DNA of 55,134 nucleotides from an uncultured Gammaproteobacteria bacterium (GCA_964645605.1 CAZYCE010000003.1:1-55134); one strand, 5' to 3'; counted from the stretch's first letter, positions 3-38,462 are shown. The notes: generated by a model not told the origin, from the sequence alone. Translations and numbers: made by a program.

Positions 3-182
3 ATAAAAATCCATCCGCTTTACAAAAAGAGATTCATCAGATCAACAAAATATCAGGTTCACGATGAAATCGGAGTAAAAATGGGAGAGGTAGTAAAATT
101 TGCGGATTGCAAACCATATTCCAAATCAAAAAAATGGAAAATTATTAAAGTGATAAACAAGAAAAAGGAGGCTAAAAACTAA
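3..182 (+). CDS. rpsQ: 30S ribosomal protein S17, 5'-truncated by window edge
   Basis: Manual translation IKIHPLYKKRFIRSTKYQVHDE...DCKPYSKSKKWKII; lies directly before rplN. Confidence 0.93.
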   Translation: MKIHPLYKKRFIRSTKYQVHDEIGVKMGEVVKFADCKPYSKSKKWKIIKVINKKKEAKN

Positions 183-185
183 AAA

Positions 186-551
186 ATGGTACAACTTAGG
201 ACAATGTTGGTTCCGGCGGACAATAGCGGTGCAAAAAGAATAATGATTATCGGTGTTCCCGGAAGGGTTGGTAAATTTGCTACTCTTGGAGACGTGGTCC
301 TTGGTGTTGTAAAGGGGGCAGATCCGGCAGGGGTTGTGATCGATCACGAAAAAGTTAAAGTTCTTATTGTCAGGACACACAAAGAGATCAGAAGGAAAGA
401 CGGAAGTTATGTTAGGTTTGATGACAATGCGGGAGTGGTAATTGATAAACAGGGTCTTCCAAGAGGGACAAGAATTTTGGGACCCATTGCAAGAGAGGTT
501 AAAGAAGCGGGTTATAACAAAATAGCATCACTTGCCCGCGAGGTGGTATAA
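186..551 (+). CDS. rplN: 50S ribosomal protein L14
   Basis: ADNSGAK and YVRFDDNAGV motifs; operon position. Confidence 0.97.
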   Translation: MVQLRTMLVPADNSGAKRIMIIGVPGRVGKFATLGDVVLGVVKGADPAGVVIDHEKVKVLIVRTHKEIRRKDGSYVRFDDNAGVVIDKQGLPRGTRILGPIAREVKEAGYNKIASLAREVV

Positions 552-587
552 ACAAAGCTTGCCACGATAGTGTGGTAAAAAACAAAA

Positions 588-902
588 ATGTTGAAATTTA
601 AAATCGGAGATACAGTCAAAATAACAGCAGGAAAAGACAAAGGTAGAGAGGGTAAGATTGAGAAAATTTTACCTGTTGATGGCAAGGTTCTTGTTCCCGG
701 TATTAATCTTTACAAAAAACATGTGAAGGGATTTGGGGACGTAAAAGCGGGAATTTATGATATTCCCAGAGGATTGGGTTTTGGAAAAATCGCATTGATT
801 TGCCCGAAGTGTAAAAAGGTGACCAGGGTAGGTTTCAAATTTGCAGGAAATGACAAAGTTAGGTTTTGCAAAAAATGTGGGAAGGAAATTGATACAAAAT
901 AA
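588..902 (+). CDS. rplX: 50S ribosomal protein L24 (with two C-terminal CxxC pairs)
   Basis: GDTVKITAGKDKGREG KOW motif; operon position. Confidence 0.96.
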   Translation: MLKFKIGDTVKITAGKDKGREGKIEKILPVDGKVLVPGINLYKKHVKGFGDVKAGIYDIPRGLGFGKIALICPKCKKVTRVGFKFAGNDKVRFCKKCGKEIDTK

Positions 903-937
903 GAAAAGAGATCCTGAAATAAATTCGGGATAATATT

Positions 938-1489
938 ATGAATAGATTACAGGAAAAATATACAAAAGAAATTAAAGGGACAATGGCTAAAGAGTTTGGC
1001 ATTAAGAATACTTTTGCCGTCCCGAAACTTGAGAAAATTGTTGTCAACATGGGAGTCGGAGGACTTTCCAAGAACCAACAGCAAATGGATGCCCTGAGCC
1101 GTGATATGGCGACTATAACCGGACAAATGCCCTCTGTCAGAAACGCGAAAGTTTCTATTGCCAGTTTTTCACTTAGGGCTGGAATGCCTGTAGGGCTTAG
1201 TGTTACTTTAAGAGGAGAAAAAATGTATTCCTTCTTGGATAGGCTTACATCAATAGTTTTACCCAGACTTCGTGATTTCAGGGGAGTTCCGGATAAGTCG
1301 TTTGATAAAATGGGAAACTATACTTTAGGATTTGAGGAACATACTGTTTTTCCCGAAATTGATTCGACGAAAAGTGCAAATGCACACGGATTTGAAATTA
1401 CAATTGTTTCGACCGCAAAAAGTGCAGAAAAAGCAAAAAGATTATTGGAGTTGATGGGAATGCCGTTTCAAAAGGAGGTAAAAGGTTAA
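938..1489 (+). CDS. rplE: 50S ribosomal protein L5
   Basis: VPKLEKIVVNMGVG and LPRLRDFRG motifs. Confidence 0.98.
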   Translation: MNRLQEKYTKEIKGTMAKEFGIKNTFAVPKLEKIVVNMGVGGLSKNQQQMDALSRDMATITGQMPSVRNAKVSIASFSLRAGMPVGLSVTLRGEKMYSFLDRLTSIVLPRLRDFRGVPDKSFDKMGNYTLGFEEHTVFPEIDSTKSANAHGFEITIVSTAKSAEKAKRLLELMGMPFQKEVKG

Positions 1490-1510
1490 AACCTTTAGCG
1501 TTTAACTAAT

Positions 1511-1696
1511 ATGAGTACAACAGCAAAAGAAGTTAGGGAAACTAAAAAATTAAAATTTAAAGTCAGATACCATAATAGGTGTAAAATCTGCGGAAGATCC
1601 CGTGGATATATGCGCAAGTATGGTCTTTGCAGACTTTGTTTTAGAGAATATGCTCTAAAGGGTGAAATCCCTGGTGTTAAAAAAGCATCGTGGTAA
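1511..1696 (+). CDS. rpsN: 30S ribosomal protein S14, zinc-binding (type Z)
   Basis: [10 protein letters not shown]...GLCRLCFRE...IPGVKKASW. Confidence 0.97.
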
Positions 1697-1706
1697 TTAC
1701 TTTCGA

Positions 1707-2102
1707 ATGATGAAAAACAATGCAACAACAAATTATGTAATAGGAGATTTTCTTATAAGAATTAAAAATGCGGCTATGGCCAAAAATAAAGAGGTCAGTG
1801 TTACCTCAAACAAAAAATTGATTGCAGTTTCCGAAGCTCTTAAAAAGATGGGATTTGTCGACAGCATTAAAGACGAAAAAGGAATTCTTACCGTTAAGTT
1901 AACCTATAAAGATAAAAGACCCAGACTTATGGACCTGAAACTTATTTCAAAGCCGGGACTTAGAGTTTACATGGGAGTTGATGAGCTTGAAAAGAAAAAG
2001 AGCCCGTCTATTTTTTTGATCTCGACGCCTAAAGGAATGGTCTCGTCTCTTAAGGCAATTAAAGACAGGGTGGGAGGAGAAGTTATTGCTGAAATTTGGT
2101 AA
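1707..2102 (+). CDS. rpsH: 30S ribosomal protein S8
   Basis: GDFLIRIKNA and ISKPGLRVY motifs; start moved to ATG 1707 downstream of rpsN. Confidence 0.95.
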   Translation: MMKNNATTNYVIGDFLIRIKNAAMAKNKEVSVTSNKKLIAVSEALKKMGFVDSIKDEKGILTVKLTYKDKRPRLMDLKLISKPGLRVYMGVDELEKKKSPSIFLISTPKGMVSSLKAIKDRVGGEVIAEIW

Positions 2103-2126
2103 TACCTTATTAGGAATAAAAATAAA

Positions 2127-2681
2127 ATGAGTAAAATAGGAAAACAACCAGTTATAATACCGACAGGAGTAACAGTAGAAGTAAGTGGTCATACGGTTAC
2201 CGTTACGGGTCCTAAAGGAACAGTCAAAAGACATTTTGCCCCCGAGGTAACCGTGGAGGTTGTCGATGATAAGGTGGTAGTCAGCACAAGAGGAACCGGG
2301 AAATATGTAATGGCTCTTTTTGGAACTACAAGAGCACTTATTAATAACGACGTGACAGGAGTTTCAACCGGCTGGAGTAAAAAGCTCGAACTTGTGGGAA
2401 CCGGTTTCAGGGCGGATGTTGCCGGTGACGAATTGTCTTTAACGGTCGGATATTCTCATCCTGTTAAAATCAAGGCTCCCGAAGGAATTACTTTTAAGGT
2501 CGAGAAAACCATTATTACGGTTGACGGATTTAATAGAGAAGTTGTAGGGCAGACCGCTGCAGTTATCAGAGCGGTCAGGCCGCCTGAACCATACAAAGGA
2601 AAGGGAATTAAATATATCGATGAGATTATAAGAAGAAAGCCGGGTAAGGCTGCTGCAACAAAAGCGGGACCTGCAGCTTAA
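2127..2681 (+). CDS. rplF: 50S ribosomal protein L6
   Basis: MSKIGKQP and RPPEPYKGKGI motifs. Confidence 0.98.
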   Translation: MSKIGKQPVIIPTGVTVEVSGHTVTVTGPKGTVKRHFAPEVTVEVVDDKVVVSTRGTGKYVMALFGTTRALINNDVTGVSTGWSKKLELVGTGFRADVAGDELSLTVGYSHPVKIKAPEGITFKVEKTIITVDGFNREVVGQTAAVIRAVRPPEPYKGKGIKYIDEIIRRKPGKAAATKAGPAA

Positions 2682-2697
2682 ACTAAACCATAAAAAT

Positions 2698-3057
2698 ATG
2701 AGTAACTTAAAATTAAAAACAAAAAGATATATTCAAAGAAAAGCTAGAGTCCGCTCAAGGATAGTTGGAACGTCGGAAAGACCGAGATTTTCGGTTTTCC
2801 GTTCCAATGCCCACATTTATGGACAGCTTATCAACGATGAAAAGAATGTTACATTGATTTCCTGTTCAGACTCGGCTATCAAAAGCAAAACGAAGCAGAC
2901 TAAAACGCAAATTGCTGAAAATGTCGGAGCAGAATTAGCTAAAAAAGCTATTGCCAAAAAAATAAAGAAAGTCGTTTTTGACAGAAATGGATTTAGGTAC
3001 CACGGTAGAATAAAAGCATTGGCCGAAGGGGCAAGAAAGGGGGGGCTAGAATTCTAA
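2698..3057 (+). CDS. rplR: 50S ribosomal protein L18
   Basis: RPRFSVFRSN and VVFDRNGFRYHGRIKALAEGAR motifs. Confidence 0.97.
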   Translation: MSNLKLKTKRYIQRKARVRSRIVGTSERPRFSVFRSNAHIYGQLINDEKNVTLISCSDSAIKSKTKQTKTQIAENVGAELAKKAIAKKIKKVVFDRNGFRYHGRIKALAEGARKGGLEF

Positions 3058-3058
3058 A

Positions 3059-3559
3059 ATGGGAAACTATAATAACAGAGGAAGAAATAACAATTATGAC
3101 AATACTCCTAAGGAGTTTGAGGAAACTGTTGTTCAAATTAACAGAATTTCCAAAAAAACCAAAGGTGGAAACCAAATCAGATTTTCGGCACTTGTTGTCG
3201 TGGGGGATAGAAAAGGAAAAGTCGGTGTAGGTCTTGCCAAGGCAACCGATGTCAGAAATGCTATCAGAAAATCAATCGAAGCGGCAAAAAGGAGAATGGT
3301 TCTGGTTCCGCTTGTCGGAACAACAATCCCCTATTCTGTAAACGAAAAATTCTCGGCTGCTAAAATTTTGCTTAAGCCGGCTCCTCCCGGAAGCGGTATT
3401 ATTGCCGGAGGACCCATGAGAGTTGTTCTTGAGGCGGCGGGGATTCGCGACGCAGTCGGAAAAATATTGGGAACAAAGAACAAAATATCAAATGTTTACG
3501 CAACTCTAAAGGCTCTTGAAACAATTTCAGGGATGGTTGATGTTAAAAGAAAGGTATAA
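3059..3559 (+). CDS. rpsE: 30S ribosomal protein S5
   Basis: INRISKKTKGG...FSALVVVGD and APPGSGIIAGG motifs. Confidence 0.97.
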   Translation: MGNYNNRGRNNNYDNTPKEFEETVVQINRISKKTKGGNQIRFSALVVVGDRKGKVGVGLAKATDVRNAIRKSIEAAKRRMVLVPLVGTTIPYSVNEKFSAAKILLKPAPPGSGIIAGGPMRVVLEAAGIRDAVGKILGTKNKISNVYATLKALETISGMVDVKRKV

Positions 3560-3561
3560 GC

Positions 3562-4017
3562 ATGACACAATTACCGAAAGTTAAACAAAAAAGTAAAAAG
3601 AGAGTTGGCCGTGGAATGGGGTCAGGAAAAGGATCCCACACATCTGGACGTGGTCAAAAGGGACAAAAAAGCAGGGGTACAATAGGCGTTCTTTTTGAAG
3701 GAATGAAGATGAGGAAGAGTTTCCTTAAAAGGCTTCCTTTGATGCGCGGAAAGGGAAAGTTTCATGCAAAGGCTCAACCTGAAAAAGTTAATTATCAAAG
3801 GCTTGAAAAGCTTGCCGAGGGAACTGAAATAACCCTTGAAGGACTTATCAAACTTGGAGTTGTAAATGCAAAATTGGCAAAAGTAAACGGAGTAAAAGTT
3901 TTAAACGTTGGCAAAAATCCGAAAAAATTTAAGTTTTCTGTTCCTACTTCAGGAAAAGTTGTTGCAGTTGCCCCGGTCGAAAAATCTTCCAAAGAAGAAG
4001 TTAAAGCTACAAAATAA
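3562..4017 (+). CDS. rplO: 50S ribosomal protein L15
   Basis: KRVGRGMGSGKG...SGRGQKGQKSR motif. Confidence 0.95.
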   Translation: MTQLPKVKQKSKKRVGRGMGSGKGSHTSGRGQKGQKSRGTIGVLFEGMKMRKSFLKRLPLMRGKGKFHAKAQPEKVNYQRLEKLAEGTEITLEGLIKLGVVNAKLAKVNGVKVLNVGKNPKKFKFSVPTSGKVVAVAPVEKSSKEEVKATK

Positions 4018-4037
4018 TTTTGTAGTAGAATAAGGCT

Positions 4038-4457
4038 ATGAAAAATGTTGGGGTTGGTAACCACCTAACAGAGTTTGAATTTGAAGGACAAAAACAAAGA
4101 ATTTCTTTTATTGAAACAATGGATGTCGCCCAAGGAGTAAAATGCGATGTCTATAAATTTGATGGTGATAAATCAAAAGATTTGGGGATTATTGAGATAG
4201 AACCAAATTGCAAAACTCCTCTACAGAAAGTATTAAAAGGAGATAAAACCATTGAGGGATATGTTTCCGGCGAGGGAAAATTAACTATTTCAACAGGTGG
4301 CAAGGATAAGACATATCCAACCAAAGAGGGTGAAAAGTTTTCTGTGAATGTGAGTATAGGCGAAACTATGCAGTGGCAGGCGGGCGAGAAGCCATTAGTT
4401 ACCTACGAGATTTGCTTTCCTCCCTACGAAGATGGCCGGTACGAGAATCTTCCCTAA
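4038..4457 (+). CDS. Hypothetical protein, possibly cupin-like
   Basis: 139-aa ORF, beta-strand-rich pattern; TAGAAT box 6 nt upstream; fold is a guess. Confidence 0.6.
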   Translation: MKNVGVGNHLTEFEFEGQKQRISFIETMDVAQGVKCDVYKFDGDKSKDLGIIEIEPNCKTPLQKVLKGDKTIEGYVSGEGKLTISTGGKDKTYPTKEGEKFSVNVSIGETMQWQAGEKPLVTYEICFPPYEDGRYENLP

Positions 4458-4630
4458 AGTTTAAACGCTCTAAATTGAATTACCCCAAATTAAGTTTTAG
4501 AACTTGCATGTAAAGTGTTTGTCTCATCTTTTATCATGGAGTAATGCATCGTAGAAGAAAAAGAGGTGTGAACTTTAAAATAGAGATTCATAGACTCGAA
4601 ATTTGAAAGGCTGGGTGATAAAATCGTACT

Positions 4631-5122
4631 ATGTTTGATGCAAAAATTCTTCAGGATAAAGATGCTGCTATCCGGGTGGGCGGCTTTCTGACAGGCCCAG
4701 ATGCATTTGAGCAAACTTGGGCTCCTAATGAAAAGCAAATAGTAGAACAAGCACCAATTGATTCTTTGACGGGAAAAAATCACAGGTATTGGTATGTTGA
4801 AGATAGTGGAGAAATAATTGGTGCTCTAGGAATTAGAGAAAATAAATACGGCAGTGGAGGGTACGAAATGGATTCGGATTACGTGGCCGTGCACAAAGAC
4901 TACAGAGGCCACGGGATAGCCTCTCAACTGCTTGATAGGGCGGAAGAGTTTGTCAAAAATAACAGTGGAAGATATATTCATGTTTTGACTTGTGACATAG
5001 ATTCATATAAACCGGCCAGAGCTTTTTATGAGAAGAATGGTTTTAGAAAAGTTGCTGAAATTCCAAATTATTATGTTCCTGGTGAAGGCCGTATAGACTA
5101 CTTCAAGGAATTTGAAGTTTGA
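4631..5122 (+). CDS. GNAT-family N-acetyltransferase
   Basis: YVAVHKDYRGHGIASQLL acetyl-CoA motif A; ARAFYEKNGF motif B. Confidence 0.9.
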   Translation: MFDAKILQDKDAAIRVGGFLTGPDAFEQTWAPNEKQIVEQAPIDSLTGKNHRYWYVEDSGEIIGALGIRENKYGSGGYEMDSDYVAVHKDYRGHGIASQLLDRAEEFVKNNSGRYIHVLTCDIDSYKPARAFYEKNGFRKVAEIPNYYVPGEGRIDYFKEFEV

Positions 5123-5162
5123 CACATTCGAAATTGCTTGACTCTTTTGTTATACTTCCCTT

Positions 5163-5624
5163 GTGATTACAATTTCGTTGGCAAGTAAAGATGAAATTCA
5201 AAACCTTCAAAATTTAAACGATGAGGTTTTTCTAAACAACCACAAATACGATTCGGATCTGAAAATGGATTGGGCTCAGTCAGAAACCGGTAAAAAGTAT
5301 TTTACAGATACCTTAAATAATCCTGACTCAATTTGTATCATTGCAAAGGATAGAAATCGTGCCGTTGGTTATATAGAGGCTACTCCAAAAGAATTTGGTT
5401 ACCGTCTTAGTAAATATATTGAGATTAATAATATGGGAGTTACACCGGATTGCCGTTCTAAAGGAGTCGGATCAATGCTCATGAAAAAACTATTTGAATT
5501 AGCTAAAGCCAAAGGTTTTCAGAAAGCCTATGTAAATACCTATTCGGATAATGTCAAAGCAGTAGCTTTTTATGAGAAAAATGGTTTTGCGAAGATTGAT
5601 GTAAGTTTAGAAAAAACTATTTAA
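5163..5624 (+). CDS. GNAT-family N-acetyltransferase (GTG start)
   Basis: GVTPDCRSKGVGSMLM and AVAFYEKNGF motifs. Confidence 0.9.
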   Translation: MITISLASKDEIQNLQNLNDEVFLNNHKYDSDLKMDWAQSETGKKYFTDTLNNPDSICIIAKDRNRAVGYIEATPKEFGYRLSKYIEINNMGVTPDCRSKGVGSMLMKKLFELAKAKGFQKAYVNTYSDNVKAVAFYEKNGFAKIDVSLEKTI

Positions 5625-5968
5625 TGCAACGCAAGAAATATTTTCATCAAAAACTCATCCGGGATAAAATTCCGGATATTATTAAAGCTGCAGGAGGTGT
5701 GGGAAAGTTTACAGTCCTTTCCCAAAAAAGATTTGAAGAAGAAATAAAGAAAAAACTTTTGGAGGAGTCAAAAGAACTTGCCAAGGCCCCGAAGGAAGAA
5801 ATACTTAATGAACTGGCGGATGTTTTGGAGCTTATCAAATCCATTGCCGATCATTACAAAATCAGGTTTTCAAAAGTTGAGGAATATCAAAAGGAAAAAA
5901 GAAGAAAAAGAGGGGGATTCAAGAAAAAGCTTTTTCTTGTCTGGTCTACAGGTAAAGCCGGAAAGTAA
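5624..5968 (+). CDS. MazG-like / phosphoribosyl-ATP pyrophosphohydrolase-like NTP pyrophosphatase
   Basis: KLIRDKIP...KLLEE...ELADVLE...KRGGF pattern; TAATG overlap with upstream gene. Confidence 0.8.
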   Translation: MQRKKYFHQKLIRDKIPDIIKAAGGVGKFTVLSQKRFEEEIKKKLLEESKELAKAPKEEILNELADVLELIKSIADHYKIRFSKVEEYQKEKRRKRGGFKKKLFLVWSTGKAGK

Positions 5969-6011
5969 TTCGTCCCATTCGAAGTTTGGAGCAAGATGCT
6001 AACATCTAAAT

Positions 6012-6377
6012 ATGTATCATGGAATTCTGGTTGATCAAGAATTTGATAATTCGAATTTTCCGGAAAAATTCAAAATCTTTTCGGTTAAGCATGATGACGG
6101 CTGGAAAATCTTCGGTGTTGAAATTTCAGATGTTGAACTAAATTCAACTGTTAAAGAAATTCAGAAAAACATGAAGTCAGAACAGCCTTGGTATTCTCAT
6201 CTGTATAACGATAAAAAACTAGTAGTCGTTTTTAAAAATAAGGTATTTAATGTTGAGCCCCACAAATCAACGTGGACTGAAGTTTTTGAATACGGAAAAT
6301 CTATTGGAATTCCTGAGATGCAATTGGATTTCTGGCCAAATAGATTTCAGGACGAAATCCATTATTTCTCCGACTAA
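6012..6377 (+). CDS. Hypothetical protein
   Basis: 121-aa ORF; extended -10 (TGcTAACAT) 6 nt upstream. Confidence 0.7.
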   Translation: MYHGILVDQEFDNSNFPEKFKIFSVKHDDGWKIFGVEISDVELNSTVKEIQKNMKSEQPWYSHLYNDKKLVVVFKNKVFNVEPHKSTWTEVFEYGKSIGIPEMQLDFWPNRFQDEIHYFSD

Positions 6378-6409
6378 TTTGACGTTCCAGAAATTTGGAT
6401 GGAAGTAGC

Positions 6410-6439
6410 TTTGAGAATTCTTCAGGTGTAAGCTAAAAT
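6410..6439 (+). repeat. 30-bp direct repeat, copy 1 (promoter module TTGAGA-N17-TAAAAT)
   Basis: TTTGAGAATTCTTCAGGTGTAAGCTAAAAT, identical to 7502-7531. Confidence 0.95.
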
Positions 6440-6445
6440 AGGGTC

Positions 6446-6772
6446 ATGTCTAAAGTAAAAATTGTTGTTTTTGTTCCGAAGACTCACACGAGCATTGTTC
6501 GTAAAGCAATGGGTGACGCCGGCGCTGGGGTAATTGGAAATTATAGTCACTGTAGTTATTCCGGTGACGGAGTCGGAAGATTTTTGCCGCTTGATGGAGC
6601 CAATCCAACAATAGGCGCTGTCGGGAAGCCGGAAGAAGTAGTTGAAGAAAGAATAGAAGTTATTTGCGACAGGGAAAAAGCGAAAGAAGTAATTGCAGCA
6701 ATGAAAAAAGTCCACCCGTATGAAGAAGTCGCTTTTGATATTTACTCCTTAATTTCCGAAGAAGAATTATAA
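6446..6772 (+). CDS. Small YqfO-like protein (stand-alone NIF3/DUF34 insertion domain)
   Basis: AMGDAGAGVIGNYSHCSY...HPYEEVAFDIY motifs. Confidence 0.85.
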   Translation: MSKVKIVVFVPKTHTSIVRKAMGDAGAGVIGNYSHCSYSGDGVGRFLPLDGANPTIGAVGKPEEVVEERIEVICDREKAKEVIAAMKKVHPYEEVAFDIYSLISEEEL

Positions 6773-6773
6773 A

Positions 6774-6802
6774 TTGAGAATTATTCGAGGGTAAGCTAAT
6801 AT
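6774..6802 (+). repeat. Diverged copy of the promoter-module repeat (TTGAGA-N17-TAATAT)
   Basis: TTGAGAATTATTCGAGGGTAAGCTAATAT, 24/29 identical to 6411-6439. Confidence 0.85.
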
Positions 6803-6808
6803 GATGAT

Positions 6809-7498
6809 ATGTTTTCTCTTTTAGAAATTTCTGAGAAGTTGAATAACGGTGAAAAATTTTGGATAGCTTTCATCGGGGATTCTAAAACGTCTTGCGAATG
6901 GGTGCATCCAAATTGGAGGGAGATTGTCGAATATGTTTTGAAGGAGGAGTTGGAAAAAAAGTATGGAGATGAGTGGAGAATTCCTTCTTGGAATATCAGA
7001 TGTTTTAATTTTGGTTATGACGGTGCCACAACTAAAGATATATTAAATAAAGTTGACGATATTATACCGGTTTCCCCGAACCTGATAATCAGTATTATGG
7101 GTAGTAATGATATGAAGATGGGCATTGATGCAGATAACCATGTTGTCAACGTTAGGGAAATAGTTAATAAGGTAAAAACAAATGTAGTTTGGTGTACTTC
7201 TATTCTTTCAATTGACGAAGAGAGAAATAAAATTTACAAAAAATATGCAGATTCTTTACTTAAACTTTCAGAAAATAAAAATCTTAAGTTAATAAACATG
7301 ATGAAGGAGTTTGAGAACTTTCCTCTAAACAAATTTTTTACCTTTAACGATAAAGGTAGACGCGATTTGACTCACCCGAATCAATTGGGAAATGCTTATG
7401 TGGCAAAAGTAATTTTGAAAAAAGTATTTAACATTGAATTTGACCCGGAGAGGTTCTGGGAGGAAACACTTGCTGGTGAGAAGTACCCCGGGTATTAG
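6809..7498 (+). CDS. SGNH/GDSL hydrolase
   Basis: Blocks GDS, G(Y)DG, GSND and DLTHPN. Confidence 0.85.
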   Translation: MFSLLEISEKLNNGEKFWIAFIGDSKTSCEWVHPNWREIVEYVLKEELEKKYGDEWRIPSWNIRCFNFGYDGATTKDILNKVDDIIPVSPNLIISIMGSNDMKMGIDADNHVVNVREIVNKVKTNVVWCTSILSIDEERNKIYKKYADSLLKLSENKNLKLINMMKEFENFPLNKFFTFNDKGRRDLTHPNQLGNAYVAKVILKKVFNIEFDPERFWEETLAGEKYPGY

Positions 7499-7501
7499 GA
7501 G

Positions 7502-7531
7502 TTTGAGAATTCTTCAGGTGTAAGCTAAAAT
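7502..7531 (+). repeat. 30-bp direct repeat, copy 2
   Basis: Identical to 6410-6439. Confidence 0.95.
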
Positions 7532-7537
7532 GCAAAT

Positions 7538-8020
7538 ATGGACAGAGAGATAAAGGCACTTCTTGGTAAAGGACTTGCCGGGGGTTATGGTGCAAGCAAT
7601 TATGGTAAAGGTGAAAGGGCCGGATTCCAACTCGATATAAATGATTATCGGGGACCGGATGGGAAGTACCATGATGAATGGGCGGCTCATCAAAATGGCG
7701 GAGGGCAGGAACTTATCGAAACCTCTGATGGCAGAAAATGGACAAGAGTATATGCCGGCGGGTCATTGGACGAAGGAACACTTTCGAAATTGGGGATTAC
7801 GGGGGAGCAAGTTTCCGAGAAAATTAAATTCTTTTTGGGAAAACTCGGAGATAAAACGAGATTTGATTTTGAAGTCACGGACACGGAAGATGATTGGGAG
7901 TATTCTTACAAAATCGATAGAGAAGAAAAAGAGATTCCCTTGGTGGTCGGCAGTGAAAGAATTGAATATAAAGGCTCTCTGGTTTTTACTCACGAAATAA
8001 TTAACTCTCCAGTTACTTGA
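7538..8020 (+). CDS. Hypothetical protein (DUF5680-like)
   Basis: 160-aa ORF; YHDEW...GGGQEL...W.R.YAGG pattern recalled as DUF5680-like, tentative. Confidence 0.6.
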   Translation: MDREIKALLGKGLAGGYGASNYGKGERAGFQLDINDYRGPDGKYHDEWAAHQNGGGQELIETSDGRKWTRVYAGGSLDEGTLSKLGITGEQVSEKIKFFLGKLGDKTRFDFEVTDTEDDWEYSYKIDREEKEIPLVVGSERIEYKGSLVFTHEIINSPVT

Positions 8021-8093
8021 GAAATCTGTGAAATAATTATAAGTACTCCACCTGTTTTTAGGCTCTGTTTTGAGATATAATTCGTAGGTACTT

Positions 8094-9374
8094 ATGTTTA
8101 AATCCGTCGGACAGTTTTTCGCAAAAGCCGTTAAAACTCGATCGATCAGAAAAAAAATACTGGTTACGGGACTGATACTTATCATCTATAGGCTTGCAGC
8201 TCACATTCCCGCTGCCGGAATCGACAGGACGACCCTTTCCGCACTTTTTGCAGGGAGCCCTCTTCTTTCACTTTTGGACGTCTTTTCGGGAGGAACTTTG
8301 GCTAACTTTTCTATTCTTGCCCTGGGACTAAATCCTTATATTAACGCATCGATCATTTTCCAACTTCTTGGCTATATAGTTCCATCCCTTGGCGAACTCC
8401 AAAAAGAGGGCGAATACGGCCAGGAAAAACTGAATCAATATACACGTCTTCTGACAGTTCCCTTAAGCGCACTTCAATCGTTCGGAATGTATGCGCTTCT
8501 TAAAGGGCAAAATGTTATTCCGAATTTGGATCCTACCGCACTTTTCTCGCTTGTCATTACGATGACAGCAGGTACTGTTTTTGCCGTATGGCTTGGGGAG
8601 CTTATTACCGAATACGGATTTAAAAACGGTGTTTCAATTCTTATCTTTGTCGGAATAGTAGCCAGGCTGCCGATTACGATCGGCCAATCCGCAAGTATTT
8701 TTCAGTCGCAGGATATTCTAAAGATAATTATCTTTTTTGCGGTTTTAATTCTGATAATAGGAGTTGTCGTTTTTGTCAGTGAGGCAACACGCAATGTCCC
8801 GATACACTATGCAAAAAGGAGGACGGAATCCGGCCTTGCCGCATCTTCCTATTTGCCAATAAGGTTGAACTCGGCGGGAGTCATTCCGATCATTTTTGCC
8901 GTGTCTTTGGTGCTCATTCCTTCCATGCTGGGACAATTTTTATCAAATGTTCCCAATGCGGGTATTGCCAATTTAGCCCGTTCGGTAAGCACCAATTTTA
9001 ATTCTCAGACGGTGCTTTATAACGTTGTCTATTTCTTTATGGTTTTCGGATTTACTTATTTTTATACCGGCGTCGTATTTAACACCGAAAAGATTTCTGA
9101 AGACCTGCAAAAGGGTGGGGGTTTTATTCCGGGTATCAGACCCGGCAAAGAAACGGAGAAATATTTGTCTCATGTTCTTTCCCGGATTACGGTAGTCGGC
9201 GGAGTATTTTTGGGATTAATTGCGGTTCTACCGTCACTTTTTCAAAATGCCATTGGGACTTCGAGCATGGCAATCGGAGGTACCAGTATTTTGATTGTTG
9301 TTTCGGTAATTTTGGAAATGGTTCGTGAAATTGAAGGCGAACTTGTGATGGAAAGGTATGAGGGATTTATTTAA
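8094..9374 (+). CDS. secY: Preprotein translocase subunit SecY
   Basis: FSILALGLNPYINASII and GGFIPGIRPG motifs; about 10 TM segments. Confidence 0.98.
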   Translation: MFKSVGQFFAKAVKTRSIRKKILVTGLILIIYRLAAHIPAAGIDRTTLSALFAGSPLLSLLDVFSGGTLANFSILALGLNPYINASIIFQLLGYIVPSLGELQKEGEYGQEKLNQYTRLLTVPLSALQSFGMYALLKGQNVIPNLDPTALFSLVITMTAGTVFAVWLGELITEYGFKNGVSILIFVGIVARLPITIGQSASIFQSQDILKIIIFFAVLILIIGVVVFVSEATRNVPIHYAKRRTESGLAASSYLPIRLNSAGVIPIIFAVSLVLIPSMLGQFLSNVPNAGIANLARSVSTNFNSQTVLYNVVYFFMVFGFTYFYTGVVFNTEKISEDLQKGGGFIPGIRPGKETEKYLSHVLSRITVVGGVFLGLIAVLPSLFQNAIGTSSMAIGGTSILIVVSVILEMVREIEGELVMERYEGFI

Positions 9375-9376
9375 AT

Positions 9377-10033
9377 ATGAACATTGTGCTTCTGGGATCT
9401 CCGGCATCGGGAAAGGGAACACAGTCTGAGATTTTATGCCGAAAATTTGAGCTTTTTCATCTCTCTACGGGGGACGTGGCCAGAAAACTTGCGGAAACCG
9501 ACCCGAGAATTAAAGAGATAATAAATTCCGGAAAACTAATACCTGCTGAAGAAATGACGATGCATGTTATCAATTTTTTGAGCAAAGAAAAAATTGAACC
9601 AAAAGGTATCCTTTTTGAGGGATTCCCCCGGTTTATTTCTCAGTATGAAGCATTGGATAATTTTTTGAAAAGCAAAGGCGATGATATAGATTTGGTGATT
9701 TCACTGGATGTACCGATGGACGTTGCAGTTAGGCGTATTTCGTCAAGATGGAATTGTCCGAAATGTGGAGAAATTTACAATACGGACTCAAAACCTCCCC
9801 AGAAGACGGGAATTTGCGATAAATGCGGCGGCACACTGGTCCAGCGGGAAGATGACAAACCCGAATCAGTCAAAACCAGATTTGAGTATTATCAGGAAAA
9901 TACAAAGGAACTTATTAATTATGTTGATAAATTGGGAAAACTGACAAGGGTAAACGGCGATAGGCCGATAGATGAAATTGCGGCGGATTTGGAACAAGTT
10001 GTTAGAAAGGCTGAGGAGAATGATCAGGATTAA
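9377..10033 (+). CDS. adk: Adenylate kinase with zinc LID
   Basis: GSPASGKGTQ P-loop, GFPR, CxxC...CxxC, QREDD. Confidence 0.96.
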   Translation: MNIVLLGSPASGKGTQSEILCRKFELFHLSTGDVARKLAETDPRIKEIINSGKLIPAEEMTMHVINFLSKEKIEPKGILFEGFPRFISQYEALDNFLKSKGDDIDLVISLDVPMDVAVRRISSRWNCPKCGEIYNTDSKPPQKTGICDKCGGTLVQREDDKPESVKTRFEYYQENTKELINYVDKLGKLTRVNGDRPIDEIAADLEQVVRKAEENDQD

Positions 10034-10769
10034 GACAAATGAGGAAATGGAAATTATGGCTGAGGGAGGAGCCAAACTCGGCAGAGTTAAAAATGCACTT
10101 GCTGCCGCCGTAAAAAAAGGCATAACAGCCTTAGACATTGAAAACCTTGCAATGAAACTTATTGAAAAGGAAGGTGCCGAGCCGTCTTTTAATAAAGTTC
10201 CCAATTATTACTGGGCTACATGCATAAATTTAAACGAAGGTATAGTGCACGGAATCCCGACAAAAGAGATGGTTTTCAAAGACGGAGATGTCGTTAAGAT
10301 TGATGTTGGAATTTACCTTAAAGGTTTCCACACAGACACGTCAATCAGTGTAGGTATAAATCCAAGCCCCGAAAACAAAAGGTTTTTATATACAGGGCAG
10401 AAGGCCTTGCAAAGAGCAATTAAAGCTGTGGCTGTCGGAAAACATATTTTTGATATTTCCAAAGCAATTGAGGACACCATTGAGGAAGCAGGCTACTCTA
10501 CAATTAAAGCTCTTGTTGGGCACGGAGTTGGACGTTCCCTTCACGAGGATCCTCAGATCCCCTGCTTTGTGCCTGGAGGTATAGAAGAAAGCCCGGAAAT
10601 AGAGGAGGGAATGACTCTGGCAATCGAGGTGATGTATGCAGCAGGTTCAGACAAAGTCGAAATATTAGAAGATGGGTGGACAATCGCGATGCGTGATGGT
10701 AAAATGTCAGGACTTTTTGAGGAGACTGTCGCGGTTACCTCCAAAGGGGTTAAAGTTTTGACCAGATGA
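10020..10769 (+). CDS. map: Methionine aminopeptidase type I
   Basis: VHGIP, IDVG, HTDT, GHGVG...HEDP, AIE; start set to ATG 10020 after GAGGAG. Confidence 0.96.
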   Translation: MIRIKTNEEMEIMAEGGAKLGRVKNALAAAVKKGITALDIENLAMKLIEKEGAEPSFNKVPNYYWATCINLNEGIVHGIPTKEMVFKDGDVVKIDVGIYLKGFHTDTSISVGINPSPENKRFLYTGQKALQRAIKAVAVGKHIFDISKAIEDTIEEAGYSTIKALVGHGVGRSLHEDPQIPCFVPGGIEESPEIEEGMTLAIEVMYAAGSDKVEILEDGWTIAMRDGKMSGLFEETVAVTSKGVKVLTR

Positions 10770-36794: not shown

Positions 36795-38462
36795 ATGACT
36801 AACCAAGCAAGGAAATGGGAAATAATAGATGAAGGAAAAATAAAAAGTAGTGCAGAAATAATAAATTCACTTCTGAAAAATAGGGGAATCAGATCGAAAA
36901 AGGCAAAGAAAGATTTTTTCGAACCCGCCGATCCTATGGAAATAACTCTTAAGTCGTTGAGAATTAAGGAGGCGGAAGTTAAAAAAGCGGTTGAAAGAAT
37001 CAAAAAGGCCAAGAAAAACGGCGAGCACATAATAATTTACGGAGATTACGACGCGGATGGAATTACGGGTACTGCAACCCTATGGGAAACGCTTCACGAT
37101 GCAGGACTTTTTGTTTTGCCTCATATTCCCGAAAGGTTTACCGAGGGCTATGGATTAAATATTGAAAGCGTTAAAAAACTTAAAAAAGAAGATCCGGAGC
37201 TTTCGCTAATTATCACTGTTGATCACGGTATTACCGCCGGAGAAAAAGTTGACGAGCTTGCAAAAATAGGAATTGACATGATCATTACCGATCATCACCA
37301 GGCCGGTGAGTTTATCCCCAAACCCCTGGCACTTATCTATACGACCGAAGTCAGCGGTTCGGCCCTTTCCTGGTTTTTCTCCAGAGAGATCCTTAAGGAA
37401 TTACGAATTGCAAATTATAAATTACAAATTAAGGAAAGACTTCAGCTTGCTGCAATCGGAACCATCGCAGATCAGCTGCCACTGACCGGTCCCAACCGCG
37501 TGATTGCCAAATATGGACTTGAGGCGCTGGGTAAAACCAGGCGGCCGGGTCTTGTCAGTCTCTATAAGGAAGCGGGCATATCGGAAATCGGTCCTTATGA
37601 AGTAGGCTTTGTTATAGCCCCGAGAATTAATTCAATGGGACGTCTTCGGTATGGACTTGAATCCTTGAGACTTCTTTGTACTAGAGACATGCTCCGCGGT
37701 GCACGCCTCGCCGGCGACATTGGTAGGGTAAATTCCGAAAGGCAGGAAATAGTTGATAAAGTTGTCGAACATGCATTGAGTAGGGCCCAAGGCAACATTC
37801 CGGATGTAATAGTTTTGGCGGATAAAAAATACCATGAAGGAGTAATTGGTTTAGCCGCCGCCAAATTAGTAGAAAAATTTTATCGGCCCGCAATTGTTAT
37901 TTCTGAAAATGGCGATGTATCAAAAGCTTCGGCCAGATCTATCGCAGGATTTAATATTATCGAGGCGATCAGAAAGTTGGATAAATATTATATCGAAGGC
38001 GGTGGGCATCCTATGGCGGCCGGGTTTTCCATAAAAACAAAAAATATTGAAATATTCACCAAAAAAATTAACCAAATTGCCAGTAAGTTTTTGACCGACG
38101 AGGTTCTTCAAAGAAGGCTGAAAATTGATTGTGAAATAAATTTTGATTTGATCAATTTTGATTTAGTAAAAGAAATCTCGCTTTTCGGACCAACCGGAAT
38201 CGGTAATCCCGAACCGGTTTTCGTAAGCCGAGGAATAGAGGTTTTGGACGCAAAGACGGTAGGGAGGGATGCGAAGCATCTTAAGCTCAAAGTGAGGCAA
38301 GATGGACATATTTTTGATTCAATATTTTTTGGTGGGGGAGAAATGTGCTCAAAATTAGCCCCGGGATCACGAGTAGATATGGTTTATTCACTAGAAAAGA
38401 ATGTTTGGATCGGAAATGAGTCACTGCAACTTAAAACAAAGGATTTAAAAATAGTTTCCTGA
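36795..38462 (+). CDS. recJ: ssDNA exonuclease RecJ
   Basis: YGDYDADG, RFTEGYG, TVDHG, TDHH, PRINSMGR, GGHPMAAG. Confidence 0.96.
   Translation: MTNQARKWEIIDEGKIKSSAEIINSLLKNRGIRSKKAKKDFFEPADPMEITLKSLRIKEAEVKKAVERIKKAKKNGEHIIIYGDYDADGITGTATLWETLHDAGLFVLPHIPERFTEGYGLNIESVKKLKKEDPELSLIITVDHGITAGEKVDELAKIGIDMIITDHHQAGEFIPKPLALIYTTEVSGSALSWFFSREILKELRIANYKLQIKERLQLAAIGTIADQLPLTGPNRVIAKYGLEALGKTRRPGLVSLYKEAGISEIGPYEVGFVIAPRINSMGRLRYGLESLRLLCTRDMLRGARLAGDIGRVNSERQEIVDKVVEHALSRAQGNIPDVIVLADKKYHEGVIGLAAAKLVEKFYRPAIVISENGDVSKASARSIAGFNIIEAIRKLDKYYIEGGGHPMAAGFSIKTKNIEIFTKKINQIASKFLTDEVLQRRLKIDCEINFDLINFDLVKEISLFGPTGIGNPEPVFVSRGIEVLDAKTVGRDAKHLKLKVRQDGHIFDSIFFGGGEMCSKLAPGSRVDMVYSLEKNVWIGNESLQLKTKDLKIVS
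37399..37433. repeat. Five tandem heptamers inside recJ
   Basis: AATTACG AATTGCA AATTATA AATTACA AATTAAG. Confidence 0.75.

Follow-up and report, generated by a model that had tools for sequence, protein, structure and literature searches.

We analysed a 55,134-nucleotide stretch of DNA (the window; GCA_964645605.1, CAZYCE010000003.1:1-55134), recorded as coming from an uncultured Gammaproteobacteria bacterium, in which a 30-bp element heads consecutive genes between rplO and secY. Homologs of its SecY protein place the window in the Woesebacteria/Microgenomates, within the candidate phyla radiation (CPR). The element has the geometry of a promoter, its relatives are confined to a variable island between these two core genes, and breakpoints between the islands of different genomes coincide with it. 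The explanation that we favour, with a probability of about 0.55, is that a family of promoters acts as recombination homology within the island, giving it the layout of an integron without its being one.

The 30-mer TTTGAGAATTCTTCAGGTGTAAGCTAAAAT occurs in two exact copies, at 6410-6439 (copy 1) and 7502-7531 (copy 3), separated by 1092 nt, a match that was found in none of 100 shuffled sequences. Copy 2 (6773-6802) is identical to them at 24/30 positions, or 24/29 if counted from 6774. All lie on the plus strand. The pattern TTGAGA-N16-18-TAWWAT has three matches in the window, which are exactly copies 1 to 3, for an expectation of 0.31, and the core TTGAGAATTNTT has three matches against 0.25 expected. 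In each copy exactly 6 nt separate the -10 hexamer from the ATG of the sole long open reading frame (ORF) present (6446-6772, 6809-7498 and 7538-8020). Copy 2 directly adjoins the TAA stop codon at 6770-6772, and copy 3 begins 3 nt past the TAG at 7496-7498. The repeat and its 1092-bp spacing, the partial copy at 6774-6802, and the succession of promoter, 6 nt and ATG, with two copies starting within 4 nt of the previous stop, had all been described in the initial annotation and were confirmed here. The genes behind the copies had also been called unrelated, and family searches did assign them to three different families, a YqfO/NIF3 cap-domain protein, an SGNH/GDSL hydrolase and, with a weak match, DUF5680; copies 1, 2 and 3 are the putative promoters of these genes, in that order. 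A TTGAGAA echo at 8017-8023, previously taken as the end of the array, is present and belongs to a decayed terminal module (CTTGAGAAATCTG...; 8016-8045, plus strand), whose TGA is the stop codon of the DUF5680-like gene. Its ortholog in the relative L103 (related loci are designated by L numbers) is a better-preserved orphan copy at 3178-3207 (TTTGAGAATTCTTCAG...), and it also aligns with the working promoter of a HAD hydrolase gene at the same position in L014. An apparent fourth copy at 36956-36985 (70%) lies inside recJ and was rejected as a chance match. A palindromic reading of the core was dropped as well: AGAATTCT is lost in other copies (GAATTATT, GAATTGTT, GAATTTTT), and neither GAATTC (16 occurrences) nor TTCGAA (15) is enriched relative to the 17.6 expected.

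By their geometry, the modules are predicted to work as full promoters for leaderless transcription. The -35 and -10 hexamers (TTGAGA-N17-TAAAAT or TAATAT) agree with the consensus at 10, 9 and 10 of 12 positions in copies 1, 2 and 3 respectively, and the spacer fits 17±1 nt. The 6-nt gap after the -10 hexamer puts the start codon at the expected transcription start in all three copies, and no Shine-Dalgarno sequence is present. In the leaderless-mRNA promoters of Actinobacteria and Deinococcus, the -10 hexamer lies about 6-7 nt upstream of the start codon, again without a Shine-Dalgarno sequence. The modules resemble those promoters in both respects and differ from them in their CPR host and in a strong, extended -35 element that other promoters of this genome lack. 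In 21 of the 65 genes of the window a TAnn[AT]T hexamer ends 5-9 nt (mode 6 nt) ahead of the start codon, against 4.8% of internal ATGs, and motifs resembling a Shine-Dalgarno sequence precede only 6 of the 65, which is rarer than background. Starts of this type occur across the window, for example at 4038, 4631, 27160, 34445, 38886, 46416 and 47374 (-). Most of these other promoters have no recognisable -35 hexamer, and the strong TTGAGA of the repeats is unusual among them. Because the spacing from -10 to ATG is a genome-wide habit, the leaderless layout is not specific to cassettes, and the proposal that it was a cassette property does not hold. A literature search found no description of leaderless expression in CPR bacteria.

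Relatives were fetched through SecY, and the 56 distinct loci showing both rplO and secY were compared. The gap between the two genes measures -8 to +70 nt at 35 loci and 0.5-10.1 kb (maximum 10108 nt) at the other 21; of these island loci, 16 belong to the 21 loci whose SecY identity is 76% or more. Both the presence of an island and its content thus vary between the same core genes, as in an insertion hotspot. The cargo is almost entirely non-overlapping between genomes: L013, with 88% nucleotide (96% amino acid) identity in secY, has only a MazG-like gene in common with the island of the window. The islands of L014, L015, L016 and L017, about 99% identical in nucleotides, do not differ in content. 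Islands of more distant relatives contain genes of either strand and share no module. The commonest families among 91 island proteins from 20 genomes are NUDIX, alpha/beta hydrolases, TPR, GNAT, SNase, S51 peptidase, CYTH and HAD. A literature search for a hotspot between rplO and secY found nothing relevant.

Alignment of 11 distinct copies defined the module, hereafter called A, as an invariant 11-nt core, TTGAGAATTnTT, followed by a variable spacer and TAnnnT; positions 2-10 and 12-13 are invariant, while position 11 and the spacer are free. Among 112 fetched loci, the core TTGAGAATTNTT was confined to rplO-secY islands, where it invariably lay on the operon strand; the sole exceptions were four viral contigs that had been retrieved by that pattern. 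It is carried by six lineages (the window, L013/L019, L014-L017, L103, L104/L105 and L106-L108). Whether the element heads different genes in relatives had been raised in the initial annotation as a check, and it does so: six families were found behind it, namely YqfO-cap, SGNH, DUF5680-like, HAD, a 101-aa protein and a 172/180-aa protein. Gene-less copies of the core are present at 3178 in L103, at 7273 in L104 and at 8016-8045 in the window. Nothing comparable to the module was found in GTDB representative genomes or in viral contigs. A scan of genome contigs with TTGAGAA-N10-GTAAGCTAANAT returned only 9 matches, in unrelated phyla and at about the chance level, and recovered neither the source genome nor its relatives; the four viral matches of a degenerate-module scan have no ATG in register and no further similarity, and were discarded as chance. 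A position weight matrix of the full 30-mer recovered only its training copies and missed the L104 copy at 7273, and is thus insensitive to partial copies. Cores of L013 and L104 that had appeared misplaced, 27-28 nt from the -10 hexamer, proved to have a -10-like TAAATT or TAATTT at 17 nt, followed by a second promoter.

Other promoter families occupy the same islands: B (TTTGACACATTCGAAAT), C (TAGTTTGCTTC) and, in other lineages, TTTTTGATATACTTCnGTT. In L014 a perfect 22-26 bp palindrome (ACATATACATCGATGTATATGT) lies directly upstream of two A modules (7815-7837 and 9574-9599), and at the second site it folds better than shuffled sequences (z -2.6). The 10-kb island of L104 carries three copies of a 41-nt repeat containing ATGCATCAATGCAT (1394-1434, 1849-1889 and 7301-7341), one of which is next to the orphan A core.

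Comparison of the islands showed that edges of nucleotide homology between genomes fall on the module. This is the case where the window (7502-8023) matches L014 (7842-8363), beginning exactly at copy 3, where it matches L103 (6774-8093 with 1936-3267) and L106 (6451-6786 with 1913-2248), and where L014 (8357-9538) matches L106 (2236-3417). The same gene has different neighbours in different genomes: the HAD gene is preceded by the DUF5680-like gene in L014 and by YqfO-cap in L106, and SGNH is preceded by YqfO-cap in the window and by GNAT1 in L103. The junction of copy 2, YqfO stop-TAA-ATTGAGAATT, recurs in L106, where it heads the HAD hydrolase. In L103 the order is L15-139aa-GNAT1-[B'+A]-SGNH-[A]-DUF5680-[A remnant]-secY, B' being a remnant of a B module. 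Relative to it, the window has two additional blocks, GNAT2-MazG-121aa between B cores at 5118 and 6378, and YqfO-cap between A copies 1 and 2. The lone B copy of L103 corresponds on its left side to the left copy of the window and on its right side to the right copy; with this hybrid-like composition it looks like the product of a crossover within the module. The suggestion that the module serves as a recombination site is favoured by these observations, to the extent that it stands at the junctions of a variable array and that breakpoints between genomes fall on it.

The identity of copies 1 and 3 is an outlier within the family. They agree at 30/30 positions, whereas all other pairs among the 11 copies agree at 17-26/30. 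Positional orthology links copy 1, together with its B' remnant, to L103a (L103 1935-1964; 26/30 positions matching) and copy 3 to both L103b (24/30) and L014a (21/30); L103a and L103b match each other at 23/30. Since these orthologs have diverged, both copy positions must be old and the spacer unconstrained. The conserved spacer pointed out in the initial annotation therefore stands for copies 1 and 3, where it is identical, but not for the orthologous copies of relatives, which agree at only 21-26/30. As orthologous spacers differ, the 30/30 identity indicates recent DNA exchange between the copies rather than constraint on the promoter. Bounded as it is by the homology from the -35 to the -10 element, it is best explained by recent gene conversion between paralogous promoters 1.1 kb apart. 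L013, the closest relative, contains an exact 30-nt duplicate of a B promoter (TTGACACATTCGAAATTTGGAGTAGGATAA), again from -35 to -10, at 6374-6403 and 6851-6880, 477 nt apart around the MazG-like gene; this is an independent replicate of the identity of copies 1 and 3.

We propose that the repeats are paralogous copies of one promoter of the sigma-70 type, each of which would fire a leaderless mRNA whose first codon lies about 7 nt past the -10 box. The A modules would form a clade-specific family restricted to a hypervariable island in the promoter-containing rplO-secY gap of some Woesebacteria, and the island would be a mosaic of units consisting of a promoter and a gene. With abutting genes, the promoters would be almost the only sequence common to the units and would provide the homology for their deletion, insertion and exchange. 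General recombination functions such as recA, recX and recJ, which are encoded in the window, could carry out these exchanges, with no need for a dedicated recombinase. The products would keep an intact promoter before each gene and would stay expressed. The identity of copies 1 and 3 would be the trace of a recent non-allelic gene conversion between promoters already in place. The identical pair could in principle also recombine, deleting or circularising the 1092-bp YqfO-SGNH segment.

Several points weigh against this proposal. The genes abut and the spacers amount to little more than the promoter, so that gene-sized breakpoints would fall near a promoter whatever the mechanism, and selection would let only products with a promoter persist. 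Given the minimal homology required by RecA, conversion is inefficient between 30-nt tracts of about 80% identity. No array was found to be polymorphic within a population: island content is shared by L014-L017, which are about 99% identical, and the strain of the window is identical over 3755-4775 in two runs. Finally, the invariance of AATTnTT past the -35 hexamer exceeds the known contact needs of RNA polymerase, and a bound protein is possible.

A protein bound to the core is the basis of the explanation that the element is purely regulatory, the core being recognised by a regulator or an alternative sigma factor that co-controls the island genes, with similarity due to selection and descent and without any role in recombination. 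It would account for the invariance that reaches past the -35 hexamer (positions 8-10, 12 and 13), for the scarcity of recognisable -35 hexamers in the other leaderless promoters of the window, and for the fact that the cores of L013, L104 and L103c keep a -10-like hexamer at 17-18 nt even with a second promoter beside the ATG. Selection cannot, however, equalise all free spacer positions in one pair of copies while their orthologs differ at 4-9 of 30 positions; the synteny breaks and the bracketing duplicates on modules would be left unexplained, and no regulator gene is linked to the modules in the window. We consider that explanation unlikely, while granting it some weight. Less credit goes to an origin of the repeat by insertion, in which a 1062-bp YqfO-A2-SGNH segment would have duplicated its 30-bp target on entering the promoter ahead of the DUF5680-like gene, either as a circle through Campbell-type crossover or by integration at a staggered cut. 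The exact repeats with sharp ends bracketing a two-gene segment, the same pattern around one gene in L013, and the YqfO gene of L106 travelling with its downstream A module would all be expected from such an event. L103, however, has SGNH-A-DUF5680 and B'+A-SGNH in the same order, so both copy positions predate it, which indicates that the two promoters stood there before and were homogenised. Moreover, crossover yields identical flanks only from partners that are already identical, and no integrase or casposase-like gene was seen in the ORFs of the window that were scanned. We therefore hold the insertion improbable. An assembly artefact, that is a chimeric join or a collapse at the short repeat, is by far the least credible. 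The exact 30-nt repeat is close to common k-mer sizes, and Logan contigs of the source run (SRR13007709) break inside GNAT1 (window 4748-4775, with a 28-nt overlap); the contig of a second run, SRR13007702, crosses that point, and the break may be a graph branch caused by the GNAT paralog or by a co-occurring variant. Yet the independent k=31 assembly (L001) passes through all three copies at 100% identity: together, Logan contigs L002 and L001 of SRR13007709, which may share reads with the window, reproduce 8-10378 at 100% identity, making an artefact unlikely. Neighbour pairs also recur elsewhere (SGNH-A-DUF5680-secY in L103, YqfO-A in L106). The contig of the second run (L003) covers 3755-5784 and ends before the repeats; the strain of the window is seen as identical in two runs over 3755-4775 only, and the module-bearing part, 6378-8045, in one.

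The initial annotation had proposed an integron-like mechanism with excision circles. This would require a dedicated cassette system in which a recombinase encoded elsewhere, or an unrecognised protein, recognises the 11-nt core in the leaderless promoter and excises and integrates circles of promoter plus gene at rplO-secY, shuffling self-expressing single-gene cassettes without attC sites or a common promoter. Such a system would fit the invariance of the core in all copies against a drifting remainder of the module, the single orientation and locus of all copies, the gene-less orphan or terminal copies (L103 3178, L104 7273, window 8016), the occurrence of the same gene behind different neighbours, and the exact promoter-length duplicates in two sister genomes. 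We searched for its components. Within the 55 kb of the genome that the window covers, a Pfam scan of the large ORFs revealed no domain of a recombinase (tyrosine or serine), integrase, resolvase or transposase; for the 91 island proteins, inspection of the 25 commonest of their 73 families and of ten large or unknown proteins showed none either. An orphan recombinase, which the initial annotation had suggested looking for, came to light in neither set. Folds of the three junctions as single-stranded DNA gave -3.0, -1.9 and -0.5 kcal/mol (z -0.65, -1.15 and +1.48 against shuffles), which reveals no hairpin or inverted repeat, and Rfam had no match at E<=1 in window 3500-9000. When SGNH, SecY and the DUF5680-like protein were looked up as exact proteins, the sole record recovered was the sample's own Logan contig, with no alternative, excision or empty-site junction on record. 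Arrays are stable at about 99% identity, the positional orthology of copies 1 and 3 with diverged L103 copies argues for conversion rather than insertion, and the islands of distant relatives have genes on both strands without any shared site. A cassette system of this kind is accordingly improbable.

The island nevertheless resembles an integron in being an array of one orientation, made mostly of single-gene units, at a fixed chromosomal place, with a short site at each junction, a decayed copy at its end, and a content that differs between related genomes. It differs in that no intI lies nearby and no attC-type imperfect palindrome or hairpin was found. Integron cassettes are promoterless under a common promoter, Pc; here each unit has its own -35/-10 module 6 nt before the ATG, and the promoter is what serves as the repeated site. 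Neither cassette circles nor array variation at strain level were seen; content is different at 88% nucleotide identity (L013) and the same at about 99% (L014 versus L015).

The left core flank of the island is rplO (L15, 151 aa; 3562-4017, weak match to PF00828), which is 87% identical at the nucleotide level to that of L013; its stop codon is the exact point where homology with relatives ends. In L014/L015 (7398-7673) and in L104/L105 (649-936), L15 has a length of only 91-95 aa, made up of the conserved N-terminal 70 residues and a Lys-rich tail without the C-terminal domain. In the window, eight genes (4038-8020) occupy the gap of 4076 nt, all on the plus strand like the core flanks. A 139-aa protein of no assigned family comes first (4038-4457; no Pfam or NCBIfam match), with orthologs at the same position in L103 (86% nucleotide identity) and in L036 and a fragmented one in L104. 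GNAT acetyltransferase 1 (4631-5122; PF00583, E 1e-17) has an L103 ortholog at 75% nucleotide identity. A B-type module core, TTTGACACATTCGAAATTG (5118-5136), overlaps its stop codon; homology with L103 (window 4685-5134) ends at this core, which is duplicated exactly in L013. GNAT acetyltransferase 2 (5163-5624; PF00583, E 4e-21) is absent from L103, and since the two GNAT genes have in common a 41-nt stretch of 80% identity near their 3' ends (5020-5060 and 5564-5604), they appear to be diverged paralogs. Next come a MazG-like NTP pyrophosphohydrolase (5624-5968; PF12643, E 2e-5, under the curated cut-off), with orthologs in the L013 and L036 islands, and a 121-aa protein (6012-6377) with no family match and no homolog in any other island.

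A decayed B-type module (TTTGACGTTCCAGAAATTTGGATGGAAGTAGC; 6378-6409) abuts A copy 1, and the same B'+A composite precedes SGNH in L103. The gene behind copy 1 encodes a 108-aa YqfO/NIF3 cap-domain protein (6446-6772; PDB 2gx8 residues 162-263, E 6e-33). Its closest homologs (91% and 89% amino acid identity) are also in rplO-secY islands, in L104/L105 and L106, with other neighbours. The L103 island contains an ortholog of the SGNH/GDSL hydrolase (6809-7498; PF13472, E 4e-12), and further ones (72% and 69% amino acid identity) belong to unrelated loci without the module. The closest of these non-island genes are at 6689-7378 in L099/L100 (GCA_021790215.1) and at 5190-5879 in L101, and such loci share only the -10 element and discriminator (TTAGAATTGG) with the SGNH promoter of L103. 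Around the L099 gene lie DUF4258, alpha/beta hydrolase and Acyl_transf_3 genes, a setting similar to that of window 44.9-53.5 kb, suggesting a second variable region. The last island gene, behind copy 3, encodes the 160-aa DUF5680-like protein (7538-8020; PF18931, E 6e-4, under the curated cut-off); L103 and L014 carry orthologs of it, and L022 has one on the minus strand.

From 8030 on there is again homology with L013, ahead of the conserved upstream region of secY (8046-8093), which contains a promoter-like TATAAT. Nearly all Woesebacteria loci, whether they have an island or not, keep about 50 nt before secY (ctctgtttttaggatcagttttgRgatataat...); because of this conservation secY appears to have its own promoter, splitting the spc cluster, and this promoter-like region probably makes the gap permissive for insertions. 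secY itself (8094-9374; PF00344, E 4e-105), the right core flank, is 96% identical at the amino acid level to its closest relative. The G+C content is 35-38.5% in the island and about 40% elsewhere, a small difference. Compared with PADLOC, the eight island proteins gave only a weak GNAT match and no recognisable defence system. The island of L104 encodes an OLD/GajA-like nuclease (3189-5114; PADLOC Old, E 3e-47) and that of L013 a protein weakly resembling TIR/nucleoside-deoxyribosyltransferases (6897-7652), indicating that the rplO-secY hotspot sometimes hosts defence-type genes.

The closest frames for the favoured explanation would be two systems described elsewhere. Horizontal gene transfer hotspots are known between conserved core genes without recognisable mobile-element genes (Oliveira et al. 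2017, PMC5635113); the island is like them in its rapid accessory turnover between the same core genes, in the absence of mobile-element genes and in the plausible use of homologous recombination. It differs in lying within the ribosomal spc cluster of a genome of about 0.8 Mb and in being made of single promoter-plus-gene units, with an island-specific promoter family coinciding with breakpoints. In the vmp system of Borrelia hermsii, short promoter-proximal homology boxes (UHS/DHS) serve as crossover points (PMC6011951). There, silent plasmid-borne genes are moved into one expression site for antigenic variation, whereas here the genes are predicted to be expressed in place, they encode small hydrolases and transferases, and change proceeds on an evolutionary time scale.

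The genomes of CPR bacteria are very small and streamlined, and their gain and loss of accessory functions are little understood. The rplO-secY gap appears as a gene-turnover hotspot of self-contained promoter-plus-gene units amid the most conserved cluster used for CPR phylogeny, in which the shared promoter bears signs of concerted evolution and coincides with rearrangement breakpoints. When ribosomal-protein markers are concatenated from such contigs, they can extend across kilobases of foreign genes. The islands are also a good place to seek strain-specific functions (NUDIX, HAD, SGNH, GNAT, nucleases, an OLD-family defence nuclease). If promoters bound to the start codon do supply the homology for shuffling, leaderless expression would be linked to genome plasticity, and these bacteria would have a simple way of keeping newly arrived genes expressed.

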